This document shows, piece by piece, positions 9,770 to 63,608 of a stretch of 64,000 nt of DNA (within the stretch, counting starts at the first letter, position 1; every line of letters starts with the position of its first letter). The stretch is taken from IMG/VR virus record IMGVR_UViG_2882504083_000001, positions 10,772 through 74,771 of that record; one strand, written 5' to 3'. The translations under genes were made by a program, and so were the position numbers. The notes beneath the pieces are model-generated. The model ran no database searches, was not told the DNA's origin, and saw nothing but the letters and a program-made list of their open reading frames with translations. This stretch comes from a virus. Its lineage: Duplodnaviria > Caudoviricetes.

Positions 9770-11458
9770 CTATTTTGACCGAATCAATAGCCCATTTGGA
9801 TTCGAAAACATCGCCGCCATTTTCATAAAACTCCCCGAAATCGTTTGAAGATCGCTTACAATCGCGGAAATCCCTGTCGATACTACGGGAAGAAGAGCCT
9901 TCTCTATCCCACCTACCACCTGAATAAGTGCCTTCATAGCCCCCTGATTTTCCTTGAAAAGATCGAGCATCGCTTTGTTTAACTCGTATCCGACCTGAGC
10001 CGCGTCCGCGCCAACATCAGACGCAAACGTCTCTTTTTTCAGGTTATCCAGCTCAAGACCTTTGTTGTAACCGGCTTTGATTGCAGAATTATCCGAACCG
10101 AAATCCTTGTAGCCGAATTTTAGATCCGACATTTCCGTAAAACTTCCACCGGACATTTTTTGAATGATCCCGCGTGTGTTTCCATCGAGACCGGATAACG
10201 CGGAAGTCATAAATTTTCCGGGATTTTTTTCCGAATCGCGGATCGCTTTGAAAACATCCCCGCTGTTTGCTTTCAAAGATTCCGCCATAGAAAGAGAACC
10301 AAAAACGCCGCCACCAAAGGCTCCACTTCTTCCTTGATCGGTAAGCTGTTCTGCGAGAGCCATTTTCCGGGTCGGGTCCATTTTGGATCCGTCTCCGCGA
10401 ACGATACCGGCGGAGAATTTGGCGTAGTCTGAAATATCTCCGGAGTAGCCTTTCGATCGAAGATTTTCAGAGATACTTGCAAGTTTTGAAATATACTCTG
10501 ATTGGCGTAGCTCTCCAAATCCGGAGGCGTTAGCCCCACCTCTCAAATATCCTAAACTAGCATTCTTTGATTCTTTTCGAATCGTCTCGAGCTCGCGGAC
10601 AACCTCTGAAAGACTTTTTCCTTGAGAGGATGCAAACTGAATTGTTTCGGAATCGATTTGATTTCCTTTTCCATAAACGGAATCGCCGGTCACTCGACCG
10701 CGCATAACGTTCGCTTGTGCGAGTTCCGCGTTTGAGAAATAACCGCCTCCCCCGCCGAGATAACCGCCGGTCGCTCCGATCGTCGTGGCTTGCGACTGCA
10801 TAGCGGCGTGATACTGTTCGCCAATCGCTGAAATTGTTTTTAAAACTCCTCCCGCGATCGCAAATGCAGCACCGACAAAAGGAAGTGATCCGGCCGCAGA
10901 GGATAATGTCTGACCCTTAACTGATCCTCCGTCCGATCCACCCCCTCCCCCACCGGCTCCGGGAAGATTTCCTAAACCACCCTTGTCAAAATTCGCGGAT
11001 TGAATTTTTAACTCAGCTTTCTGGATAGAGAATTGTTTTGCGCCGTTAGGATTCGAAAGTCCTTGAGATGGACTTTCACCCGTACCATCTTCTTCACCGG
11101 AAGAATTCTTTTTTTTCTTCTTTGAAAGAAGATCCTTCGCGGCTGAGATTTTTTTGTCTAAGGTATAGTAGAATCCACCGTGACCGGTTTCGTCAAGATC
11201 TGAACCGTCTGCTCCAATCTTGTTCGCGGTTACACTTCCGTTTCCGTATTTGGAAGCAGATTCTTTGAATCGTTTTTTGTAATTCTTAGGATACCAGGAT
11301 TCATCTTTTCCGCTGTTTCCTCCTCCCCCACCTCCGGGAGATTTCGGAAACCTAACACCTCTCTTTGCTTTTCGCGCAACCCTTTCGAGTTCCTTTTCAA
11401 CATCTTTGAAATCGGGTGTTGCGTGAACCGAAATGTCAATATGTTCGCCACTAGACAT
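9770..11458 (-). CDS. Tail tape measure protein
   Basis: Gly/Ala/Ser-rich helical 562-aa protein directly downstream of the tube and chaperone genes. Confidence 0.7.
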   Translation of the reverse strand: MSSGEHIDISVHATPDFKDVEKELERVARKAKRGVRFPKSPGGGGGGNSGKDESWYPKNYKKRFKESASKYGNGSVTANKIGADGSDLDETGHGGFYYTLDKKISAAKDLLSKKKKKNSSGEEDGTGESPSQGLSNPNGAKQFSIQKAELKIQSANFDKGGLGNLPGAGGGGGGSDGGSVKGQTLSSAAGSLPFVGAAFAIAGGVLKTISAIGEQYHAAMQSQATTIGATGGYLGGGGGYFSNAELAQANVMRGRVTGDSVYGKGNQIDSETIQFASSQGKSLSEVVRELETIRKESKNASLGYLRGGANASGFGELRQSEYISKLASISENLRSKGYSGDISDYAKFSAGIVRGDGSKMDPTRKMALAEQLTDQGRSGAFGGGVFGSLSMAESLKANSGDVFKAIRDSEKNPGKFMTSALSGLDGNTRGIIQKMSGGSFTEMSDLKFGYKDFGSDNSAIKAGYNKGLELDNLKKETFASDVGADAAQVGYELNKAMLDLFKENQGAMKALIQVVGGIEKALLPVVSTGISAIVSDLQTISGSFMKMAAMFSNPNGLLIRSK

Positions 11459-26976: not shown

Positions 26977-27678
26977 CTAAATCGGCGGTCCGGTTTTTGT
27001 AGGTGGTGACGGACCCGGTGAATACGTATGTCCGTGGTTTTTGGCAGGAATTCCGTCGATGATTACATCCTCGCTAACCGTGATTTTTCCGGTCTGGTCC
27101 GTATCTCCTTCTATCGTTAAATCCCCTTCGAATTTTGTGTTTCCTTTGAATGTAGTCTCACCCTCAATTTCCAGAGTTTCGACTTTGAGTTTTGCTTTTT
27201 TGTTTTCGAAGTCGAGTGAGAATACAAGAACTTGATTTTCGTTATAGATTTCGATTTTGTGTGTGGTTTTTCGTATGCAGTAACCGGATTCGTGAAAGTC
27301 GATAATGTCTTTTTCAGGATCGATAAAACTAAACTTAGACCAAAAACTTTGAAGATTGGAAAGATCAGAATCCTTTGTAGCGAATGGAAAAACTTGTGTG
27401 ATTACAGGTGCGCGGTAGGAACCTGCGATAAACTCCAAAAGGACTAACTGGTCTTTTTTGATTCCAAACGCTCGTCCGTGTGCATTCCCATTTTGTTTTA
27501 AAAAAGGTCCGATGGTTCGAACCTTTTTAAACGGTTCTCCAAAGGTTGTTATCACGTTTACGCGAAACCGCGGTAGAACCTCGGTAACTGTCGCAAGTAG
27601 CGCGGAGGCAAACCTTGAGTCCGGGGACTGAGGTCGTTCTTGAAAGTCAAATGCGTCGTTTGAAAATCCAGACCTCAT
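26977..27678 (-). CDS. Baseplate central spike (gpV/gp45-like)
   Basis: OB-fold-like N-terminus, beta-helix repeats (IEGETTFKGNTKFEGDLTIEGD) and a C-terminal HGH...KTGPP metal-binding tip. Confidence 0.75.
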   Translation of the reverse strand: MRSGFSNDAFDFQERPQSPDSRFASALLATVTEVLPRFRVNVITTFGEPFKKVRTIGPFLKQNGNAHGRAFGIKKDQLVLLEFIAGSYRAPVITQVFPFATKDSDLSNLQSFWSKFSFIDPEKDIIDFHESGYCIRKTTHKIEIYNENQVLVFSLDFENKKAKLKVETLEIEGETTFKGNTKFEGDLTIEGDTDQTGKITVSEDVIIDGIPAKNHGHTYSPGPSPPTKTGPPI

Positions 27679-29585
27679 ACGGAAATTATCGCGCTCCCTC
27701 CGCTCAACGATTCGATATAAAATAGAAAGTGAAGGGTGTCTGCGTCTTGAACAGTTCCGAAGAACTTCGCATCAAGAATACGTGGATTGGATTTAATCAG
27801 TCTTAGGAATTGAGGGATATATTTTTTTCTTTGAATTTCGTCGGGCAATTCTCCCGGAGGAATCGGATTTCCAATTTCAGGAGAACCGGGAATTGATCCT
27901 TGAATAATGTCAATGTGATCTAACGTTTCGTTAAATAGTGCATCGTCTCCCTCGACAAGTGCAAGATCGCCGGTCGGAGACACTTCAATTCCTCTGTTCG
28001 GCGTGAGCTTTATATCGCAACCGATGAGTGCGACCTCTAAATCTTTCGGAGAAGGATTCTCGGGAAGACTTGTGAAAATATTCGTTCTTGTTCCATACGG
28101 GATCTTGATTGCAAGTCGATCGAGGGTTGTATCTCTTTTACCGTTAAAAGATGCAAGGGCTTGTCCAAGGCTTGCGTCTCCGAGCTTTGTTTCTGCGATA
28201 TTCTCCCAAGTATCATTTGCCGAAGTATGAAGTATGGAAAATTCGTTGTCAATACTTGCTACGTTAAGCGCGGCAAGGGTTTCAAGTAGTATCTCATCGG
28301 CGGATAAGGCGAACCTGTAAACGTCGTTGTCGACCCATACAGTAAAATCCGCACCGGGTTGTAGGCTCATGGCTTCATACGATCCCGAGTTATCCACTGG
28401 GATCACGAACTGACCTATCAGCGCAAAAAGCGCAGAGCAGTTGTGTCGAGTTTGGTCAATGTTTTGTCTAAATTCAGCTTCGTTCGCTCTCGACTTTTTG
28501 TAAGCTTCGTCGATTTTGTCTGATAATTCCTCTGCGTGAAATCCTCTTCTTTTTTTAGATATTCCCAAATCGGATTTTGCGGACTCAAACGTAACGCGAG
28601 CGAGCTTTCCTTGCGCGGTAAACTGATCTTTCATCCGGTCCCAAGAAGAAAGAAGTCTTTTTGCGGAACTTGTAAAAACTTGTACTCCGCGAGCGGCACC
28701 AAGTAATGCACCGGAAAGTTGTAAGGGTACATTTACAAGATTCTCGAGCTCGTTCATAAGACCGGAAATGGTTCGAAACGCGTTGAAGTTACTCCTTACA
28801 AGCTGGCTCGCGATTTTAGAATTCAGTTCCTTTACGACGACAAGGTTTAGCGAATACTTGTAAGTGTTTGTGTCGCTGACTGACCGGGAAATCGTAAATC
28901 CATTCTGCGGAATCACAACCTCGACAGTACGATTTCGATCGTAATCCCGAAAAACAAACGCATGCGTTTTCCATGTGAGTCGATTCTCTGAAAATAGTTT
29001 TGTGATCTTTTGTGCTTGTGGATCGTTTGAAGAATACTCAACCGCGTCAAGACTCCTTGCGTAGTGAAGAAAATACATAAAGTCTTGAAACTCTTGAAGC
29101 CCGGAACGAAACTCCCCTCCCCCAAGACTCAAGTAACTGCTTCGAATCTTGTCGTAGTAACTCCCAACTTTGTTTTTTACGATCGACTTCCCGGCGGAAA
29201 ATGCGGACTGAACAAATCCACTCCCTGAGTCTCCTGGTATGGAAATTTTAGGTTTTGAAGGAAGACCCAAATGATAGATGTGAAACTCCCCTTCGAGTTT
29301 TATATCGTTGTTATCTTGTCCGTAATCGACAACGATACAACTTCCAAAGGTTTTCTCGACTGAAGTTCTGTTTTTAAAATTTTCAGTGTAGCTAAGAGGG
29401 CCGTTTACAAAAAAGTATTCTGATTCATTTTGAAAAATAGAATACGTTCCGTTTGATTTCTTTTCATAGAAAGCAAACGAGAAAACATTTTGAGGCTCAT
29501 AAGTCGGCGCAAGAGACCCGCTAAACGCTCCTCCCGTAACTGAATTAAATCCCGACGTTACTCCACTGACGACACTGGAAAGCAC
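27675..29585 (-). CDS. Baseplate protein: tube-initiator-like + LysM-like + gp25-like fusion
   Basis: LysM-like ILHTSANDTWENIAETKLGD..LGQALASFN; gp25-like GDLALVEGDDAL...GSIPGSPEIG near the C-terminus. Confidence 0.55.
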   Translation of the reverse strand: MLSSVVSGVTSGFNSVTGGAFSGSLAPTYEPQNVFSFAFYEKKSNGTYSIFQNESEYFFVNGPLSYTENFKNRTSVEKTFGSCIVVDYGQDNNDIKLEGEFHIYHLGLPSKPKISIPGDSGSGFVQSAFSAGKSIVKNKVGSYYDKIRSSYLSLGGGEFRSGLQEFQDFMYFLHYARSLDAVEYSSNDPQAQKITKLFSENRLTWKTHAFVFRDYDRNRTVEVVIPQNGFTISRSVSDTNTYKYSLNLVVVKELNSKIASQLVRSNFNAFRTISGLMNELENLVNVPLQLSGALLGAARGVQVFTSSAKRLLSSWDRMKDQFTAQGKLARVTFESAKSDLGISKKRRGFHAEELSDKIDEAYKKSRANEAEFRQNIDQTRHNCSALFALIGQFVIPVDNSGSYEAMSLQPGADFTVWVDNDVYRFALSADEILLETLAALNVASIDNEFSILHTSANDTWENIAETKLGDASLGQALASFNGKRDTTLDRLAIKIPYGTRTNIFTSLPENPSPKDLEVALIGCDIKLTPNRGIEVSPTGDLALVEGDDALFNETLDHIDIIQGSIPGSPEIGNPIPPGELPDEIQRKKYIPQFLRLIKSNPRILDAKFFGTVQDADTLHFLFYIESLSGGSAIISV

Positions 29586-29656: not shown

Positions 29657-30847
29657 GTGGCCGCTCCGTATGTTCCAAAAATTTTCTTAGAATATGTTAC
29701 CGCGATACAGAACTCGCTTCTTGCTTCCGGTTCACGTCTTTCAAATTTTAATCCAGGTTCAAGAATCTCAACATGGATTGCCGCGATCGCAACAGTCCTC
29801 GCAGAAGGGGATCTACGAACCCTTAACGGTTTTTACTACGCGATCAAAGAAGGCGTATACAACGCCTTCGGTTTTAAAAGACTCCCCGGACTTGTATCCG
29901 TTGGACTCGTTCGTATCGAACATTTAGGTCATACCGAACCGATCACAATTCCCGTTTTCAAACTCGACCTTTTCGGTCTTGAGTATGAATCGATCGCATC
30001 CGTTACTATACCGGTTGGACAAACCTTTAGCGAGATTGAAATCCGGGCAAAAAAGCCAGGAGTCGATTACAATATCCGTAGGCTTTCGATCAATACACTG
30101 GAAGGACTTGGTTCGGTAAATATCGAACTTCCGCCAAACATTCGAATATGGAATCCGGCAGACTTCGCTGGTGGAACAAATCTTGAATCCGAAGAAAACA
30201 GGTTAAAAAGATTCAGAAACTTTATCATTTCATTAGGTCGTTCGACAAAGCTTGGAATCTATACTGCGGCCACATCGATCCCCGGAATAGCAGGGGTTCA
30301 ACTAACAACAAACTGCAATCCATATTCGGGTGCGTTCGAAATCGGTTGGATCAATTTGTATGTAAGCGACGGAACCTCAAACCCTCCACAAAGTCTTTTG
30401 GATTTGGTTCAAAAAACGATCGAAGGAGACCTAAAAGATCCAGAGAATTATCCCGGATTTTCCGCCGCAGGTACCCAAGTTGCCGTTTTCCGAATTCCGG
30501 TCTTTGGTATCACGGTAAAGTTCAAGCTTCAAATCCAAAAAGAATCTCAGCTAAAAGATGAAGACGCGTTAAATATCGCGCAAAATCAAATCACCGTTTA
30601 CCTGAATACGCTTCCTGTTGGTTACGATGTTCTTTTAAAACAAGTCGAGGGAACTATCCTTAAAGCGCACCCTGACTTTTATCGGGTCATTATCGAAGAA
30701 TTCTACGGAAAACTTGCAAGTGATCCTGTTCCAAATCCAGTCCCGCTAAACTCTGATGTCGTGGTTCCATCGACGTATCTACCGCGCACAGGTGGAACCT
30801 CCGGCGGTTCCATCTCTGGAACGCTTGAACGAGTGGAGCCAACCTAA
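29657..30847 (+). CDS. Baseplate J/gp47-like wedge protein
   Basis: LSNFNPGS, AKKPGVDYN, GGTNLESEENRLKRFRNFI.SLGRSTK.GI and INLYVSDG. Confidence 0.85.
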   Translation: MAAPYVPKIFLEYVTAIQNSLLASGSRLSNFNPGSRISTWIAAIATVLAEGDLRTLNGFYYAIKEGVYNAFGFKRLPGLVSVGLVRIEHLGHTEPITIPVFKLDLFGLEYESIASVTIPVGQTFSEIEIRAKKPGVDYNIRRLSINTLEGLGSVNIELPPNIRIWNPADFAGGTNLESEENRLKRFRNFIISLGRSTKLGIYTAATSIPGIAGVQLTTNCNPYSGAFEIGWINLYVSDGTSNPPQSLLDLVQKTIEGDLKDPENYPGFSAAGTQVAVFRIPVFGITVKFKLQIQKESQLKDEDALNIAQNQITVYLNTLPVGYDVLLKQVEGTILKAHPDFYRVIIEEFYGKLASDPVPNPVPLNSDVVVPSTYLPRTGGTSGGSISGTLERVEPT

Positions 30848-31444
30848 ATGTCTTTTAACAAACTCTTAGAATTGATTCCGCAGATAAACGCAACCGATCC
30901 TGTGTTTCGAGAACTCTTCGGAAATGAGGAGAGACCGGAGCTTAGTCCGGTTACGAATATAAACGACATTAACAAGGGTGCGCTTTTTAATTCGGTTGAG
31001 TGGCATTTGAGATACCAAGCCTTAGCCGCGCGTTCGGCGGAGCTTTCTAACGCGGAAGGATATTTTTTAAAACTTTGGGCAGAGTTTTTAGGAATCGAAA
31101 GACCTGTTGGAATGTCAGACGAGGAGTTTGTCGGATACATTATCGGATATGTTCTCTCTAATGAACCTACAATTCCAAAACTCGGCGAGGTCTTTCCTGC
31201 ACCCGATTTTGTAGTTCTTCGGTGTGACGAGCTAGGATTTGCAACCGACATTTCCGCGAGTGATCTAGGACTTAACATTCCCGGTCCGGGAACAAAAGCC
31301 GTTTCAGGAATTATAACCCCCGATCGCGGCGCAAGTTATATCGTCGTAGATGATATGAGTCGTTTAACAAATCTTCAACTTACAGAAGCGACAAGGATTC
31401 TCGCCGCTGGAACTGCGGTGTTCGCGGGAGAAACCAATGTCTGA
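30848..31444 (+). CDS. Baseplate wedge protein (gpI/gp48-like)
   Basis: AEGYFLKLWAEFLGIERP.GMSDEEF motif, directly after baseplate J. Confidence 0.7.
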   Translation: MSFNKLLELIPQINATDPVFRELFGNEERPELSPVTNINDINKGALFNSVEWHLRYQALAARSAELSNAEGYFLKLWAEFLGIERPVGMSDEEFVGYIIGYVLSNEPTIPKLGEVFPAPDFVVLRCDELGFATDISASDLGLNIPGPGTKAVSGIITPDRGASYIVVDDMSRLTNLQLTEATRILAAGTAVFAGETNV

Positions 31445-32219
31445 GGTTCAAATTCCTTTAACAAACAACGAAGTTAAAATTTATTATCACAATCAATTTC
31501 AAAAACTTTCTTCCACAGATCTTAACCGTCTCTCCGGCGCGGAACCGCAAAACTCTAGTATCCCCGCGATTCTTACTTCAATACTTGCAACGATAGGAAG
31601 AACAACGGATACCGCGATCGGATTCGAGGTAAGTTCACCCGAAAATCATACAATTCTTGTCGGACCCGGACTTGTAATTCGACCCGATGCAGTTCATCTT
31701 TTTCCTTCTATAACGCTTACACCCTCCTTGGGTGCGCTTTGCGGGATTTACGAATTCTCACTTGATTCTCTTCTTTCCGATAACTCCGCGGTTCAGGTTT
31801 GGAATATTGAATCGGAAAGATTTCAACCGCAGGTAAGACCGACGCGAAAAACGTTTCAAACAAATCTTTTTGAACAGTGGAGTCCGACGACTCCCCTTCC
31901 CTCTTCTACTCCCGGAAGATTTTCACTCCTGTCGTATGAAAAAAGTTCACCTACCGGACCGATTACAAATCTGGTTCGTACACTTCCTGTCTATGATCCT
32001 GCACTGATCGGAATCGATGTGGAATTGAATCCTGGGATTGAAGATAACGATTCGCTTGCGTCTGCGATAAACTGGCTTTTTGATTTCATCGAAGAAAAGG
32101 AATTTATAAGAACGACTCCCTCACCCGGATTTAATTCCGCGAACTGGAGGGTACGAACACAAGGAAACCTTTCCTTTTGGAGTATAGACAACGGGGGTAG
32201 CTGGCACCCTTTCGCATAA
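31437..32219 (+). CDS. Baseplate/tail protein, probably extended by a -1 frameshift
   Basis: 260 aa ending in an Asp-box-like SIDNGGSW; slippery C CCT TTC sits just before the stop. Confidence 0.65.
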   Translation: MSEVQIPLTNNEVKIYYHNQFQKLSSTDLNRLSGAEPQNSSIPAILTSILATIGRTTDTAIGFEVSSPENHTILVGPGLVIRPDAVHLFPSITLTPSLGALCGIYEFSLDSLLSDNSAVQVWNIESERFQPQVRPTRKTFQTNLFEQWSPTTPLPSSTPGRFSLLSYEKSSPTGPITNLVRTLPVYDPALIGIDVELNPGIEDNDSLASAINWLFDFIEEKEFIRTTPSPGFNSANWRVRTQGNLSFWSIDNGGSWHPFA

Positions 32220-32275
32220 CCCCACCGAGCGGTCCTTCGTCTCCGGTTCCCGGAGCGGGTGGTCATTGGGTGGGG
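32207..32275 (+). other. Candidate -1 programmed ribosomal frameshift signal
   Basis: Heptamer CCCTTTC (32207-32213), 6-nt spacer, stem CCCCACC/GGTGGGG (32220-26/32269-75) and inner hairpin CTCCGG-TTC-CCGGAG (32241-55). Confidence 0.65.
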
Positions 32276-32659
32276 AATTACGGTTCGAATCGTTACGACG
32301 TGTTTCCTCAAGGTTCCTATTCAATCGGGGACTTTTGGCATGTCGTCGACGCGCATCTTGATTACGGTGTTCCCGTTACTGACTGCGGACAGTGTGGAGG
32401 TCAAAACGAATGTTTTCAAAAAGGGCCGTGGTTTGACTGCTTACCGTGTCCGGGCGGTTATTCAAGATCCATAAATGTCGGGCTTTGTTGGACCGGTGGC
32501 ACCGTATTCGTTCCGTGTTGCACGACGACTTGTTGTATAAACAACTGCAATACGTGCCATATTCCGAATTGGTATACGAGATACCGAGTCTATAAATATG
32601 AATTTCTTCAATGGACTCTCGTCACAACCTATTCTATCCCCGGAAGATTCTGGTCTTAA
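32213..32659 (+). CDS. Cys-rich domain in the -1 frame (annotated GTG start at 32270)
   Basis: Frame open from 32201. A Pro/Gly linker is followed by a domain with 12 Cys. Confidence 0.65.
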   Translation, partial: RITPPSGPSSPVPGAGGHWVGNYGSNRYDVFPQGSYSIGDFWHVVDAHLDYGVPVTDCGQCGGQNECFQKGPWFDCLPCPGGYSRSINVGLCWTGGTVFVPCCTTTCCINNCNTCHIPNWYTRYRVYKYEFLQWTLVTTYSIPGRFWS

Positions 32660-32662
32660 TCC

Positions 32663-32839
32663 ATGAAAGAAGAGTCCTTAACTTTTTCTGAATCCAGACT
32701 TGAGGTTTGTCTCTCCTGTCCATTCGTCGTAAAACGAATTTTCTCAGAACAATGCAGCGTTTGTTACTGCTTTGTTCGCCTCAAAACAAAACTAAAATCC
32801 GAGGCTTGTCCGATAGGGCGATGGAAAAGAGAATCCTAA
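32663..32839 (+). CDS. Small 6-Cys protein (DUF6171-like), 58 aa, below the ORF-track cutoff
   Basis: MKEESLTFSESRLEVCLSCPFVVKRIFSEQCSVCYCFVRLKTKLKSEACPIGRWKRES*. Confidence 0.7.
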   Translation: MKEESLTFSESRLEVCLSCPFVVKRIFSEQCSVCYCFVRLKTKLKSEACPIGRWKRES

Positions 32840-32840
32840 T

Positions 32841-33164
32841 ATGAGTTGTTGTAGTGGAGGAAAAACTATGAATCAAGAACTGATATTCAATCAAATCGAA
32901 CAGTTTTCGAATATCGAAACGAACTTAAAACTAAAAGATAGCGTTGCGACTAAGATTGTCCGCGCCCTTCTTCAAAAAGCAAAAGAACTGCATGAAGAAT
33001 TTAAAGAAAATAGTGAGGAACATATCTTTCACAGCCTTTCCCAAAAAGCACTTACCGCATTCTATACCAATCAAGATGTAAGTTCCCTTTTAGAAATGGT
33101 AAGTGAAAAGATTTTTCTAAGCCTTAGCGAAGCAAAAAAATTAGCGGAAGAGTTTAAGAAATAA
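32841..33164 (+). CDS. Hypothetical protein
   Basis: 107-aa helical ORF starting MSCCSGG; start may be an internal ATG after SD GGAGG. Confidence 0.55.
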   Translation: MSCCSGGKTMNQELIFNQIEQFSNIETNLKLKDSVATKIVRALLQKAKELHEEFKENSEEHIFHSLSQKALTAFYTNQDVSSLLEMVSEKIFLSLSEAKKLAEEFKK

Positions 33165-56504: not shown

Positions 56505-59500
56505 ATGAAATCGAGAATTGCAAAAGTTATCTATCTTGTTGTTTCCATTCTATTTGTATTAAATTTTTCCTTTGTAGATGGTGTTCGAAATTTCTTTAGC
56601 GCGGTCGCTTCGGCTTTTTCATCCGGAATTCCACAGGCTCTCACTGTGATCCATGCAGGTTCGGATGGTTCTGCAAGTACTCAATACGAAATTGAGCTCC
56701 CAAAAGGTACAAAAGACGTAATTCCTAAGTTGTCGCTTTCCTACAATTCCAATGGTAGAAACGGGATTGTAGGTATGGGCTGGGATTTAAACGGAATTCA
56801 TTCCATTTCTCGAAATCCTTCTTACGGAATTTCCTATAACGGTACGGATCAGTATATCTCTTCCCTTGCCGGTGAATTGATCGATGTAAGCGGAAATAAA
56901 ACGAAGTATCACAGCCGAAAAGAGTCTTGGATCTTATTTTCACCGCAGGGAACTTGCGGAGACGCTCCCTGTTCATGGATTGCAACGGATAAGTCCGGTA
57001 GAAGATTTTTTTTCGGAGGAAGTTTAGATTCCAGAATTCCAGCGTTAGGAAGAACAGCGGGGTCGATTCGTGAATGGACTTTGAGTCGCGAAGAGGACGT
57101 CCACGGAAACGGTTATAACATTCAATATTCTTCCATAGACGTTACCAACGGCGATTATTATCCAGATACGATTACATACAATGATCGAATTATCCGGTTT
57201 GTTTACGAAAACCGAAACGACAAAACTTCGAATTACATTTTAGGAACTTTGGAGCGGATCCAAAAGAGACTCGATAAAATCGAAATCTTAGTTGCGGGTA
57301 GCATATTTAGAACGTATGATCTCGATTATTCTTACGGTCCGGTAACGGGTCGAACTGTACTTCGGACGATTAAGCGATCGGGCAGTAATACGTTCGGTTC
57401 TGAAAATTTTGACGACTTGAATTTCACATATACGAATCAATCGGGTAGTTTCTCGATCGGAAGTCTCGATTATCAAGTGTTTACGGACACGACAACGATG
57501 AACGTTTTCATTCCGAACATTGCTGTTGATTTCTTAAACGTTTTTTTTAATAGTAGTCTTCCTTACCACCCTTCCGCACTGGATACAAATATCGATGCGT
57601 CTCTCCAATACGTTGTTAAAGTTCCCGTTCCGGATCGAAACGCATGTAACCTAGGTGCCGCATCCTGTCTTTGCGCTTTGTTGGTTCCATGTTGGGGAGG
57701 AAATCAAGGTTTCTTTGAATATTTAGCCGGGAACTGTGCGGGCTTTTTGGGTTGGGGCGGGCCGGATGCTTGTGTGAACGGTGTGAATTCCGCTTTAACG
57801 GCTTGGTTGCCTATGGATCTGAACGGTGACGGCATATCGGATTTCGTCGCGATCAACGGTACCGAAGAGAACGGATCGATTCATTTAACCGGGCATATTC
57901 AACGGATCGGACAAGGTCCAATTACATTTACTAGTTGGAATATTCCAATTCATTATAATACCTATTTTCAACCCGTCGATTTAAACGGGGACGGTAAAAC
58001 GGATTTCGCATACGAGGATGGAGGAAGACTTTGGGGGATCTACTCAAACGGAACCAGTTTTAGCGCACCTGTCCTTTTTGGGAACGTTAGTTTGGCCGGA
58101 GCTAACCGCAATATGAGCGTTTTTAGTCCGTACGAATATCGATTCCATTACGGTCCGAATAGTACGTCTCCTCAAGCGAGCAATCGTCCGGCTGCGGATT
58201 TTTTTGCGGATATGAATGGCGACGAATTGACCGACTTTGTTCATGCGAATGGAAGTAGTTTTTCCATTTATATCAACCGGGAGACGTACTTTGATAATCC
58301 GATCGTTATTGCAGGGGGTAACGATTTCTTTCTAAATGCCATGGTCGATATGACGGGCGATGGGAAGGCGGATTATCTTCAGCTTATCCAGACTTATGAT
58401 AATCCAACATTGAGCGCTTTGCAGGCTCAAAAAGCCGCGTTGGATACTTTGATGGCGCAGTATCAAGCGGACCACACAAGAGCGAAAGCGGTTGCCGATT
58501 CTTTTCCCGTTTCGACGACCGGGAATGTAATCGTTGAAGCGGAATTTCAAAATTTCATCGCTTATTTGGATACAAATGGAAATAGCCTTCTTGCGGATTA
58601 TTACGAACTGAACGGCAGTGCGTACGATTACGATAGCACCGACCTTACAAATCTTCAAACCGTGCTGGAAAATATCGTAAGCGCGAAAATGAACTTCGTA
58701 GGCGAACAGAGTTATTCGATTAACTCTCAAATCGGAGCGATTTACGCGCAAGGCACAGTGGGACTGGCGACGTACGCTCTTCAAATCAGAAGTTTTAATT
58801 TGAGTAACGGCACTTCTCAAGTTAGAACGTATTCTATGTCCAATTCGATCGATCCGGAAAGAAGCACGCTTGCGGATGTGAACGGGGACGGAGTGCTTGA
58901 TTTTGTTTCGTTTCCGGGAACTCAATGTGTCGTATCGATTTTTATGGGGAATGGTTTTTCCAGTCCGATCGCAACGAACCTAAATGCGGGGACAGGTAAG
59001 AACTTAGTTCAGTTTAATTTCGGAGAAGTGAACGGCGACGGGTTGTCCGATTTGGTGCTTTTTAACCGCGAATCACAGAGATTTGAAACCTATCTTTCCA
59101 ACGGTAACGGTAATTTTACGTTGAACGGCAGTTATTCGTTCGGCGGTTTTTCTCCCCAAGAATATACGGATGCTAACGGTATCGAGAGAGCCGATCAATA
59201 TCAAATTTCTTTACAAGACATGAACTTGGACGGGATTTCCGATCTAAGTCTCGTTTTCTTGAACGTAGGAAAGACGATGGGAAAGGTTTATTATCGATAC
59301 AGTTCCCCGAGAAGCACCGGAGAGGATTTACTCCAAGTCGCATCCAATGCTTCCGGAAATCAAAGTTCGAGAGTGCAATACGCGCTGACAAATCAGCATC
59401 CGGGAGCGACACAACCGGGAACCGGTAATTATCCAAACGTGCCAAACGTTTCTCCCGGTTTTTTGGTCGTTCAATCGGAAATAGATATGTCTACGGGTGT

Positions 59501-62500
59501 TACTCATCGAAAAAATTATTCTTATTCGAATTTGAGATACAATCAAGGTACAAGGGGAGTCGCGAGAAGTCTCGGCTTTGCTTCGATCCGGGAAACGGAC
59601 GTAAACACGGGATTTTACAAGATCACGGATTACTTTCAAAACGATTATCGGCTGTCCGGTTCTCCTCAATCCGAACGGAGTTACAACGCATCCAATAACT
59701 TGCTGCGATCAACTGTTTATTCGGCTCATTCGTTTCCGAATTCGTTCGGAACGGAGATTGCGGTTCCCGGTTCTATTGTTTCCAATCTATATCAAAATGG
59801 AAATCTGCTGACCACATCCGTTAAGTCCGTCTCTTATGATTCCTACGGTTTTGCAACGAGCGATTCGGAATCGATCGGGTCCCATTCTATCACCAATACG
59901 ACTCAGTATTCTCATGATACGACTGCGTGGAGAATCGGAAGGGTCGTTCGATCCAGAAAGAATGTGGACGGAACCTGGACAGAGGATTCTCAATTTCAAT
60001 ACACGGGTGATAATCTCACTTCTAAAACTCAATTTCCCGCGAGTGCTTATCCTTTGACGACTTCGTTCGGTTATGATTCGTATGGGAACGTGATTTCCGT
60101 GAACGATCCATCCAGCGGCTCGAATACGATCGCATACGATTCTTTACTGAATCATTTTCCGGTTACAAAAACAAACGGACTCGGGCATGTTACGACTGCG
60201 ACTTACGATTCTACAACCGGCCTTGAACTTTCGATCAGTGATCCGAACGGCTCCGTTACGACGACGAATTACGACGCCTACGGAAGAAAGTTGAACGTGA
60301 TTTATCCGGGAGAAACAAGTCCCAATGAAACATATACGTATGAGAATACGGGAAACTACGACTTGAACAACTTAACGAATAACGAATCGGTTACGAAAAG
60401 CATTCGGGACAGCGTAAGCGGAAGCGTTAACGTTTCTAAAATTTTCCGCGACGCTTTCGGCAATACGATTCGAACGGAAAATAATACCGCCGTTGCCGGC
60501 GTGAATACGATCGAAGAGTTTCAATTCGATTATGCGATCGGTAAATTGATCCGTAAATCGCAACCTTATTTGAGCGTTCAAACTCCTCAATACGTTTCGT
60601 TTCAATACAACGATCCGGATGGAGGTTTGTCGTCGATTGTCGAGCCTTCTTCGACTGGAACGATTTTGACAACAGTTTCCAAAACAGGATATACGGAAAC
60701 GAAATCGAAAACCTATCCGGACGGACAAACGGAAGTTCGAAGCGAGACGATCAACGAACTCGGTCAAACCATAAGCCGAACGGAAAACGGTAGAACGATT
60801 TCCTACGTTTACTCTCCGTTTGGCGAGATTCGTTCGGTTACGGACGTATCCGGCGTTACTACAAATATCACGTATGACAGCATTGGGAGAAGGATTTCCA
60901 CCCAAGATCCGAACTCGGGGACGATTTCGTTCAGCTACGATTCGCAAGGTAGAATTGCGAGTCAGACAGATGCAAGAGGAAAGAGCGTTCAATTTACCTA
61001 TGATTCCTTGGGAAGAATTCTTACCCAGAATACGAACGGCGGCGAAACATCGATTGGGTATTCATACGACGACCCGAGTGTACCTTTTTCAAGAGGAAGG
61101 TTGACGAAGGTTGTGGATGGAAGCGGTCAGACAGAGTTTCGGTATAATCAAAGAGGGGAAACGATCCAAAAGACGAAGATCGTGGATGATATAACGGCGA
61201 TCTTCAAAACGGACTATGATTCTTTAGGAAGAGTGGTTACGAACACGTATCCGGACGGAACCAAACTTCATACAATCTATTCCCCGACAGGAAGTATTTC
61301 AGGGATCACGATGGATTCAGCGGATGGGACAAGCGTAGGACATACGGTCGTACGATACGAAGGGCCGGCATTGAACGGCAACGGAGAACCGATCGTAAGA
61401 AGAGTGACTGGAAACGGAGTGACCATGGAGATCGCGTTCGAACCTACGGACCAAAAACCGCTCGCATTAACGACGCGTAAACCGGACGGCAGCGTAATCG
61501 GAAACGTAGAATATACGTATGACGGGAAGGGACAACTCACGCGGATCGAAGATCGATTGAATCCGACAAGAAGTCAAAATTTTACCTTGGACAATTTAGG
61601 CAGAGTGACCCAAGCGACGGGGAAATACGGAACGCAAAGCTATTCGTATTCTGCAAACGGAAACTTGATGCAAAAAGGCGCATATACCTTGAGCTACGGT
61701 GATCCACAACACGCGAATGCGGTGACTCAAGCAACTAGCGCGAACACCGGAGCGATGAGTTACGGATACGATGCAAGCGGAAATATGACCAACCGCAACG
61801 GAGACGTGTTACGCTACGATAGCTACGGAAAACTGACTGAGATTACACCGAACGGAACGACGGAAACGATCCGTTACACCTACGACTATACCGGGAGCAG
61901 AATCAAATCGATTACGAACAATACGCTGACGACGAGTTACTTTTTCGGAAGCGATTACGAGATCGTGAGGGTATCGGGAACGCCTGAGAAACATACGCTG
62001 TATGTGAAAGGAATCGAAGGGGAAACGGTAGCTCAGTTGACGAGGGAAGATGCGACGTTGCAACTAAGTAACGGTGCGAGTGGGGTAGGTGGTTCGGAAG
62101 AATCAACGATTTCTGTTTTTGTGGGAATTCTAACAAATCCATTTTGCAAGGACGTTGCGATCGATTGTGGGAACTATTACAAGAATCGAATTCAGGGAAA
62201 ACTTGTTTCGGTTTTCGGATATTCCTCGTTTTTTCAAGGAGGAGTTCCCACGCATCTATTCAACGCATTCTACTTCTTGATTCTTTTAGGAATTCTCTAT
62301 TTCTCCTATCCGTTTTTCCTGAAAGGGAATGCACTTTTACAAAACCTCTCCTGGAGAGGAGTCGGAACCCCAGCGGTTATTGTTGCGTTATTTGTGATGA
62401 CTTCTCTTCCCGGATGTGGAATCTTACCCGGAACCGGAGGCAAACAAGGTGATCCTCCTTGGTTATTAGCGATGGGATCAAATTTAGCATCAGGAGTTCC

Positions 62501-63608
62501 GAATATTCAAAATCCAGGAGCTACGACCTCGGGAGGAGGCCAAACGGGCGGAACACCGGTGAACGGAATGTATTTCTATCACCCGGATCACTTAGGATCT
62601 GTAACAACCATCACTGACGGATATGGAAATCCAGCAAGCGGCCCCGAACCTGGAGTGAGTTACGTATCCTACGAACCTTACGGTTCCATCAACCGAAACG
62701 ACTCGTATGGCCCGGATATATTCCGTTACAAATACACGGGACAGGTGGAAGACAAGGAAACGGGTCTTTACTTTTACAAATCTCGTTACTACGATCCAAC
62801 GCTCGGGAGATACTTACAAGCTGACTCAGTTGTTGATCCCAAGTCAGTGAACGGTCAGAATCGATATATGTATGTAGAAGGGAATCCGGTGGGGGCAACA
62901 GATCCATCGGGTCACAGTTTGGATTTGATGTTCTACGCTGCATTGTATCAATACGCGCAATTGCCGAATAATCCGCAGAAGGAAACGAATAACTTGATGT
63001 TGTTGTATCTTCACAACCAACAAATCCGAAACACTTCCGGCCCTGGTTGTCCAGTGAGTGGAAAAAATCCTGCAGTATTTGGTAATTTTCAAGGTGATGG
63101 AAAGTGCGGAGGGTTTTTGCCAAGAGATACAATGGAGTATATGCTTTATGCTTTCTTAGGAAAAGATTTGGGTCCTGGCATTGCGCTTGTAATTTATTTT
63201 TTGATGAAGCCTAATTCACCATTGACTATCGTTGATAGATCCGGAATAGCCCACGATGAAGAGCATAGCTGGGATTTGAACAAGAAGGCAATAAAAGCTA
63301 ACGAAGAATGGATTAAACAGTCCTGGGGGAATTATTATTCGATTAACGAACAGAGGGCGGCATACAAGAGAGAATACGATGCTTTGCCGAAAAGTTATGA
63401 TCGATATGGCGGGACAGGGAAGTCGATTATAGCGGGTGTGAATTACGCAGCGACGACGATCTTTGATTACGAGGCATTGGTTCTTGGAACAACGCTTTTC
63501 GGGATTCAAAATATCGCAGGTTATTTTTGGTTAGGTGCTAATCGAGCTTTGTATGTCCCGAAAGGCAGATACAACAATTTATGGAAACCAAAGAAATGGA
63601 GATTATGA
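56505..63608 (+). CDS. SpvB/TcB-like + FG-GAP + RHS/YD-repeat polymorphic toxin
   Basis: IELPKGT...[22 protein letters not shown]; DLNGDG repeats; YD repeats; [32 protein letters not shown] and [10 protein letters not shown]. Confidence 0.93.

Follow-up and report, generated by a model that had tools for sequence, protein, structure and literature searches.

A probable programmed -1 ribosomal frameshift that would extend a baseplate protein of LE1-like Leptospira phage-plasmids

We analyzed a 64,000-nucleotide stretch of viral DNA (Duplodnaviria; Caudoviricetes), positions 10,772 to 74,771 of the IMG/VR record IMGVR_UViG_2882504083_000001, hereafter the window. The window lies on a 74.8-kb contig from a Leptospira genome, and its nearest public relatives are LE1-like Leptospira phages and phage-plasmids. 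Our subject is the 3' end of one plus-strand gene, gene A, which lies downstream of the baseplate gene J and overlaps a second open frame in the -1 register. A reading made from the letters of this DNA without database searches (the sequence-only reading) had proposed that a programmed -1 frameshift joins the two frames and adds a Pro/Gly linker and a cysteine-rich domain to the gene A product. Here, we describe the junction in the window, compare it with its relatives and weigh this proposal against its rivals.

The slip site and the two frames in the window

The features that make up the junction are as follows.

31437-32219, plus strand: gene A in the 0 frame, encoding the body of 260 amino acids (aa); third gene of its operon; phrog_4351
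32193-32197, plus strand: purine-rich Shine-Dalgarno (SD)-like run GGGGG, 9 nucleotides (nt) before the heptamer; GGAGG in most relatives
32207-32213, plus strand: slippery heptamer C CCT TTC, in the X XXY YYZ phase of the 0 frame and in the overlap of the two frames
32214-32219, plus strand: spacer GCATAA, 6 nt, made of the last sense codon (Ala) and the 0-frame stop TAA at 32217-32219
32220-32275, plus strand: irregular hairpin of 56 nt, candidate 3' stimulator, with a minimum free energy (MFE) of about -33 kcal/mol
32213-32659, plus strand: -1 extension, 148 codons and a stop; a Pro/Gly linker (RITPPSGPSSPVPGAGG), then a predicted all-beta domain of ~130 aa
32384-32557, plus strand: cysteine-rich insert, 12 cysteines including three CxxC and two CC motifs

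The 3' end of gene A encodes an Asp-box-like motif (S-x-D-x-G-x-x-W) followed by H-P-F-A and the stop, its final codons being CAC CCT TTC GCA TAA. Across the 260 codons of the gene, C CCT TTC is the sole in-frame X XXY YYZ heptamer, and it sits within the six-codon overlap of the 0 and -1 frames, where ~0.045 such heptamers would be expected by chance in the five possible positions. Taken alone, this statistic from the window is only suggestive; the site goes far beyond chance because the heptamer is conserved across relatives, as described below. A TAG at 32198-32200 closes the -1 frame, which is open from 32201, two codons before the heptamer, and stops at 32657-32659. It contains no ATG, and its only start-type codons are GTG, at +21 (32270) and +31. 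The predicted shifted product has 259 + 148 = 407 residues, with ...SWHPF from the 0 frame joined directly to RITPP... from the -1 frame. On re-reading the sequence, we found the in-frame heptamer, the 6-nt spacer and the GC-rich stem where the sequence-only reading had placed them, and likewise the -1 frame open from 32201 without an ATG and the products of 260 and 407 aa; its figure of 12 cysteines in the added part proved exact, all of them falling in 32384-32557.

A slip of one base at this site would re-pair the P-site tRNA from CCU to CCC and the A-site tRNA from UUC to UUU. The host genome encodes tRNA-Pro(GGG), tRNA-Pro(UGG) and tRNA-Phe(GAA), so both tRNAs should be able to re-pair one base back. 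Consistent with an efficient site, C_CC.U_UU.C is one of the motifs for which Sharma et al. report high-level -1 frameshifting in E. coli, and they rank H_HH.U_UU.Y among the most efficient in bacteria (PMC4066793). The +1 motif of influenza PA-X and the amalgaviruses (UUU_CGN) was also considered and does not apply here, as TTT CGC is read in the destination frame and not in the source frame.

Conservation of the junction among relatives

Related junctions were gathered from 8 annotated phage and plasmid records, 15 genomes of the family (five genera according to the genome collection), 4 metagenome contigs reached through distant protein matches, 26 IMG/VR contigs and 9 Leptospiraceae contigs from an exact-word scan. 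After removal of duplicates, 36 distinct junctions were left, from Leptospiraceae plasmids, phages and metagenome-assembled genomes (MAGs) and from IMG/VR and metagenome contigs. CCCTTTC was identical in 36/36, and all 36 had a 6-nt spacer composed of one sense codon and the stop. The spacer read GCATAA in nearly all loci, with GCGTAA in L008, GGGTAA in L019 and GCTTGA in L029 (L numbers denote single loci). The -1 frame opened 2-7 codons before the heptamer (23 codons in one locus; the distance was scored in 23 loci) and ran for 136-158 codons. The heptamer was kept where nucleotide identity between Leptospira replicons falls to ~68-74%, where identity of the added domain falls to 40%, and on two metagenome contigs of 56% GC (the window has 41%).

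Synonymous positions indicate what is being conserved. In 25 distinct loci, the codon preceding CCT specified His, Leu, Phe, Arg or Tyr, yet it was always NNC, against a background of 22-41% C-ending for those codons in the same genes. The Pro codon was CCT in 25/25 (background 25%) and the Phe codon TTC in 25/25 (background 35%). Synonymous positions are thereby fixed over three consecutive codons, the first of which varies in the residue it encodes. Because constraint on the protein cannot fix a third-position C while the residue changes, these comparisons argue that the pattern is the product of constraint on the bases C CCU UUC and not on the protein.

The -1 frame, in turn, has the marks of coding sequence ahead of its first start-type codon. 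From the stop of gene A to the GTG at 32270, entropy at the three -1 codon positions was 0.39, 0.24 and 1.33, and the peptide PFRITPPxGPxSPVxGAGGHW was conserved (18 sequences in both cases). The sequence-only reading had named conservation of heptamer and linker in homologues as a check on its proposal; the heptamer was invariant, as described above, and PFR(I/V/L)(T/I)P was retained in all relatives. Both frames were under purifying selection. The GTG at +21 itself was replaced by GCG in L004 and L012, TGG in L023, GAG in L025 and L029, TCG in L027 and GAA in L031, and independent initiation there, which the sequence-only reading had kept as its alternative, cannot explain the family. In L021-L023 there was no ATG, GTG, TTG or CTG at all from the upstream stop to the heptamer. 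In closer relatives, a conserved Trp codon of the 0 frame incidentally creates a CTG or TTG at -2 relative to the heptamer; L021-L023 lack this CTG or TTG. These comparisons indicate that the -1 frame codes from the slip site onward, upstream of any start codon. Existing annotation does not reflect this: in the 8 annotated records the second open reading frame (ORF) starts at the TTG at -2 or at the GTG at +21, or is uncalled with a spurious minus-strand ORF in its place, and all public records examined carry either two 'hypothetical proteins' or miss the second one.

Downstream of the spacer, the hairpin in the window folds into a basal helix (CCCCACC/GGTGGGG), an inner helix (GG.CC/GG.C) and an apical stem-loop (CUCCGG-UUC-CCGGAG). 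In MFE folds, its first pair lay 6 nt after the heptamer in 35/36 sequences and 7 nt after it in the remaining one, with a span of 26-56 nt and an energy of -21 to -46 kcal/mol. Pairs were counted in the 26 distinct sequences that align without gaps, with controls in which the 3' partners were slid by 1-3 columns; RNAalifold was also run. The basal helix was 100% paired, and over the whole structure 93.9% of cells were paired, compared to 42-60% with slid partners. The covariation score exceeded those of all 500 shuffles, a control that overstates significance, the sequences being related. At the fifth basal pair, the 36 sequences had A-U (22), G-C (7), G·U (3) or U-A (3) and no mismatch. This pair is formed by the synonymous third base of a Pro codon and the middle base of the codon after Trp, and it follows the residue encoded there: A-U with Val, G-C with Ala or Ser, and U-A with Glu. 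Double changes were also seen in the apical helix (CUCCGG/CCGGAG, CACCUG/CAGGUG, CAUCG/CGGUG), and the distant loci L031, L033 and L042 had other stem sequences in the same place. The predicted hairpin is thus both conserved and covarying.

On the 5' side, the SD-like run lies 9-13 nt upstream of the heptamer. In the region from -20 to -4, a duplex with the anti-SD of -6 kcal/mol or lower was found in 93% of 31 distinct loci, compared to 6% of background windows from the same genes; the anti-SD used was a generic sequence that may not be the host's, as the 16S gene was not found in the host assembly. The SD-like element of dnaX acts at about such spacing, and the run is possibly a 5' stimulator of the dnaX type.

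Two kinds of search addressed how far the arrangement extends. In an exact scan of 596 Gb of genomes with a 17-mer, 25 of the 34 matches fell outside Leptospiraceae, and the downstream domain was absent from these by a motif test; in the two that were inspected (L036 and L063) the upstream frame was not continuous either. By our own estimate, ~70 chance matches to a 17-mer are expected in 596 Gb on both strands, and the matches outside Leptospiraceae do not widen the family. An exhaustive HMMER scan of 1.84 billion representatives with the extension gave 11 matches, none of them a single-ORF fused form; the true relatives among them were short ORFs starting at the frame opening or at the GTG. 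The fused form was also absent from a search of 5.8 billion clusters with the body, in which all 20 homologues were 186-286 aa long. One inserted base would join the two frames, and the lack of any fused form over such divergence suggests a need for the short as well as the long product. On the L. weilii plasmid pLiSL18 (L002; NZ_CP092205.1, ~2255), the 0 frame before the heptamer is open for 154 codons only and gene A is not listed; gene A is probably disrupted there, with the cassette and the downstream domain intact.

The body, the added domain and their neighborhood

Gene A matched phrog_4351 at 1.6e-120, with 260/260 positions of the profile covered. Sequence-level relatives among shoulder proteins were found neither in Pfam nor by a profile search of the Protein Data Bank (PDB). 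An AlphaFold2 model of the body had a predicted local distance difference test (pLDDT) score of 78. VIA-align against the PDB ranked SPP1 gp22 best (Z 8.7), followed by the tail fibres of cyanophage A-1(L) and of HFTV1, matched in their N-terminal parts (Z 8.0, 7.7 and 7.3), the receptor-binding proteins (RBPs) of lactococcal phages p2 and 1358 (Z 5.9 and 5.6), TssK (Z 5.6, 5.2 and 4.6) and Mtd of a Bordetella phage (Z 5.5). These ten best matches form one coherent group (Z 8.7-4.6), all over residues ~25-186; IglD (Z 4.5) and a phi812 baseplate protein (Z 3.5) came next, and unrelated structures appeared from Z 3.3 down. Foldseek matched SPP1 gp22 and the A-1(L) fibre with probabilities of 0.95-0.97 and weak E-values. 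As modeled, the body has the N-terminal shoulder fold of RBPs and TssK. The shoulder anchors such proteins to the baseplate wedge, and the head that binds the target is C-terminal in all of them.

Two metagenome contigs (L025:2107-2865 and L029:2093-2956) have the cassette and the added domain in common with the window and a body that resembles gene A in its last ~55 residues only (BLASTP 6e-08, residues 205-260), the N-terminal part being a different module.

The extension was modeled as all beta (pLDDT 84). No convincing match to its fold was found by Foldseek against the PDB, by VIA-align (best Z 4.3), in the ESM Atlas (TM-score at most 0.35) or in BFVD, and neither Pfam nor a PDB profile search returned any match. 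Class II fusion proteins appeared as weak rows that reflect long disulfide-rich beta hairpins only, and were rejected as relatives. Immunoglobulin (Ig)-like domains (I-set, FN3, BIG2) are known to be added to phage proteins by frameshift (Fraser et al. 2006, as cited in PMC5009743); no Ig-like chain was among the Foldseek, VIA-align, Atlas or BFVD matches of the extension, although such lists do not exclude the fold. The N- and C-terminal strands of the extension are conserved. The cysteines lie in its variable middle part, which they appear to decorate, as they are mostly lost in L023 and absent from L033 and L042. These cysteines seem no less likely to bind metal than to form disulfides, given the three CxxC motifs and assembly in the cytoplasm.

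L033 and L042, both from Leptospiraceae MAGs (L033:1939-2355 and L042:2821-3243), carry the same cassette followed by an unrelated, cysteine-free -1 domain of 139-141 aa. The heptamer, GCATAA, the hairpin and the PFRITP...HW.G linker are kept, and the 0-frame body is longer, with 331-350 open codons. Their extension resembles that of the window in the junction and the linker only, which suggests that heads have been exchanged at the cassette. Judged from these alignments, the cassette lies at a boundary where bodies and heads were swapped and was itself kept.

The neighbors of gene A on the same strand are these.

29657-30847, plus strand: baseplate J, first gene of the operon
30848-31444, plus strand: 198-aa protein, second gene of the operon
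32663-32839, plus strand: 58-aa ORF with six cysteines, DUF6171 (Pfam E-value 1.8e-6), adjoining the end of the -1 ORF and found in the same place in related plasmids
32841-33164, plus strand: 107-aa ORF starting MSCC, phrog_4073, after the DUF6171 ORF

The window holds a structural module of the myovirus type, with sheath, major head, terminase and baseplate J genes, and also a ParB gene. The slip site is downstream of J and the 198-aa gene (the product of which gave no match in a profile search of solved structures), and the sheath, head and tail-initiator genes are on the opposite strand. J, the 198-aa gene, gene A and the genes for small cysteine-containing proteins constitute a separate plus-strand unit within an otherwise minus-strand structural module; this unit, from 29657, diverges across a 71-nt gap from the gene for a 636-aa tail-tube-initiator/baseplate protein at 27675-29585 on the minus strand (PF23980, phrog_975). 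The largest gene of the window, a 2367-aa ORF at 56505-63608 on the plus strand, matches solely PHROGs of unknown function (phrog_10385 and phrog_31698). The order of J, a ~200-aa protein and gene A parallels TssF-TssG-TssK and the J-I-H genes of P2. Phage LE4 has the same order at its fibre locus, with J and a 221-aa protein ahead of a tail-collar fibre of 404 aa (PMC6078989). With an RBP-type shoulder fold in the body and the gene at the fibre position of P2-like and LE4-like phages, it is plausible that the extension serves as a receptor-binding tip.

Interpretation

The invariant layout of heptamer, spacer and stop, the selection on the bases of the heptamer, the covarying hairpin and the -1 periodicity all support the proposal of a programmed -1 shift that adds a Pro/Gly linker and a cysteine-rich domain. 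We therefore favor, with a probability of roughly 0.88, a programmed -1 ribosomal frameshift of canonical design that would give a C-terminally extended, TssK/RBP-shoulder-like baseplate protein.

Several observations weigh against this interpretation or its functional part. Many of the loci are closely related, and the counts given above overstate their independence. The hairpin of the window is not thermodynamically unusual for its composition (z -1.5), the values in L029 (-0.6) and L031 (-0.1) are weaker still, and conserved Pro-Pro and Trp-x-Gly codons account for part of the conservation of the stem. The SD-like run shares bases with the conserved Gly codons of the Asp-box, and relatedness among loci confounds this signal as well. 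Within Leptospira, conservation is higher in the extension than in the body (for example, 78% versus 56% identity to the window at the same locus), which is unlike the usual determinant of host range, and no structural relative of the added domain was found to back a receptor-binding role.

The likeliest rival is a pair of separate genes, with the cysteine-rich protein initiated on its own, either at GTG 32270 (129 aa) or at the CTG or TTG at -2. Most loci do have the GTG at +21, with G-rich and in part GGAGG-like sequence before it; a GGAGG is also found a few nucleotides ahead of the (C/T)TG, and RefSeq and gene callers place starts at +21 or at the TTG at -2. However, the 21 codons before the GTG evolve as -1-frame coding sequence, and the GTG has been lost in seven lineages, where its position pairs in the hairpin. 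The (C/T)TG derives from the 0-frame Trp codon and is merely 3-4 nt from the SD-like run, and L021-L023 have no upstream start-type codon whatsoever. Separate genes would also leave the invariant synonymous bases of the heptamer unexplained, and we regard this arrangement as quite unlikely. Less probable still is termination at the TAA followed by a restart at the overlapping ATA (ATAA), which would yield a free protein of ~146 aa. The ATA overlaps the TAA in most loci and conserved coding starts around there, but the restart codon would be GTA in L008 and L019 and TTG in L029, which rules out this route as a general explanation. Moreover, a restart needs neither the conservation of CCC TTT CGC upstream nor a third-position C before the heptamer, and a strong hairpin just past the restart site would hinder initiation.

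The two remaining rivals place the change of frame elsewhere than on the ribosome. If RNA polymerase slipped on the CCC or TTT run, an identical protein would result, and short homopolymer runs are indeed present; however, they are 3 nt long, and productive transcriptional slippage requires long runs, typically 7 or more A or T (reviewed in PMC5009743). The phase of the heptamer (X XXY YYZ), the spacer of 6 nt and the covarying hairpin instead bear the signature of tandem slippage by the ribosome, which leaves the RNA-level route a slim chance. Least probable of all is a broken gene or an assembly error, in which a former single gene of 407 codons has lost one base. Homopolymer runs are common sites of indels, but the same two-frame layout and the same place of the stop recur in 36/36 junctions from independent isolates, plasmids, phage records, MAGs and metagenomes, an intact single-frame version was found with neither the extension nor the body, and both frames are still under purifying selection.

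In the programmed frameshift that we favor, most ribosomes would read CCU UUC GCA and stop at UAA, producing the 260-aa body, the N-terminal shoulder of which would anchor to the baseplate wedge. On C CCU UUC, the hairpin that starts 6 nt downstream would hold some ribosomes in a pause, possibly with help from the SD-like run 9 nt upstream. The tRNA-Pro and tRNA-Phe would then slip one base back to CCC UUU, and reading would continue in the -1 frame through the Pro/Gly linker into the ~130-aa, beta-rich domain with its 12 cysteines, giving the 407-aa form. Both forms would presumably enter the baseplate in a ratio set by the efficiency of the shift, with the long form bearing the distal head. 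We infer the occurrence and the efficiency of the shift, and likewise the composition of the trimer and the stoichiometry in the particle.

We also entertain a tentative and, on balance, doubtful extension of this model, in which the cassette (the Asp-box strand, C CCU UUC, the stop, the hairpin and the PFRITP-HW-G linker) is a portable junction. It would fix the stoichiometry of mixed trimers, for example two headless chains and one headed chain, and would act as a conserved recombination point for the exchange of bodies and heads. If true, each TssK-like trimer would carry a single monomeric head stabilized by metal or disulfides, an undescribed way to put an asymmetric tip on a symmetric fibre.

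In tailed phages, programmed shifts are a textbook feature of tail chaperones and are also known from decorations of capsids and tail tubes. Virion proteins extended in this way include the T3/T7 capsid proteins 10A/10B, the major head and tail proteins of Lactobacillus phage A2, proteins of the Listeria phages A118, A500 and PSA, and SPP1 gp17.1* (PMC5009743). As in those cases, the predicted shift lies near the 3' end of a structural gene and would give a short majority form and an extended minority form. In the known systems both forms are built into the particle, and A2 and T3 use -1 slippage. Unlike those proteins, the one predicted here is a baseplate-anchored, TssK/RBP-shoulder-like protein and not a capsid or tail-tube protein, its added domain is not recognizably Ig-like, and the nucleotide sequence of the cassette is kept even where the partners on either side of it differ. 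The layout of the signal resembles that of E. coli dnaX in its X XXY YYZ heptamer, in the stem-loop that follows a spacer of 6 nt and, as a candidate third element confounded by coding, in the SD-like run ~9-13 nt upstream. The heptamer of dnaX is A AAA AAG rather than C CCU UUC, and its shifted frame terminates almost immediately, whereas the protein here would be lengthened by 148 residues.

The shift in tail assembly chaperones (lambda G/GT and P2 E/E'; Xu, Hendrix and Duda 2004, as cited in PMC7230728) is likewise a conserved programmed event in the tail gene module of phages, which sets the ratio of two products with a common N-terminus. The present site differs in lying after baseplate J and a ~200-aa gene, in a gene with a predicted virion-protein fold, and we do not assign it to the G/GT class. 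The predicted shoulder-neck-head layout of the gene product and the place of the gene beside wedge genes resemble those of TssK, the lactococcal p2 and 1358 proteins, SPP1 gp22, A-1(L), HFTV1 and Mtd. In these shoulder proteins the head is encoded in frame, whereas here it would be reached by frameshift only and a headless form would also be made. Our literature search found no paper describing this site, and the heptamer string gave unrelated mentions only. In the 2016 review (PMC5009743), 'tail fiber', 'tail fibre', 'receptor binding' and 'baseplate' are not mentioned. The predicted protein joins the frameshift-extended virion proteins, in a gene class for which we found no precedent in the literature.

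The finding would place recoding in the gene of a baseplate-anchored fibre or receptor-binding protein, where we found none described, and the added domain is apparently without structural relative. The clean signal, with an efficient heptamer, a fixed spacer, a covarying hairpin and a possible 5' element, would make the site a natural model for -1 frameshifting beyond E. coli. A predicted 407-aa virion protein of LE1-like phage-plasmids is currently missing from databases and from the search spaces of proteomics. LE1-like replicons are widespread in pathogenic and saprophytic Leptospira and serve as vector backbones, and knowing their putative adsorption protein would be a step towards understanding their host range.

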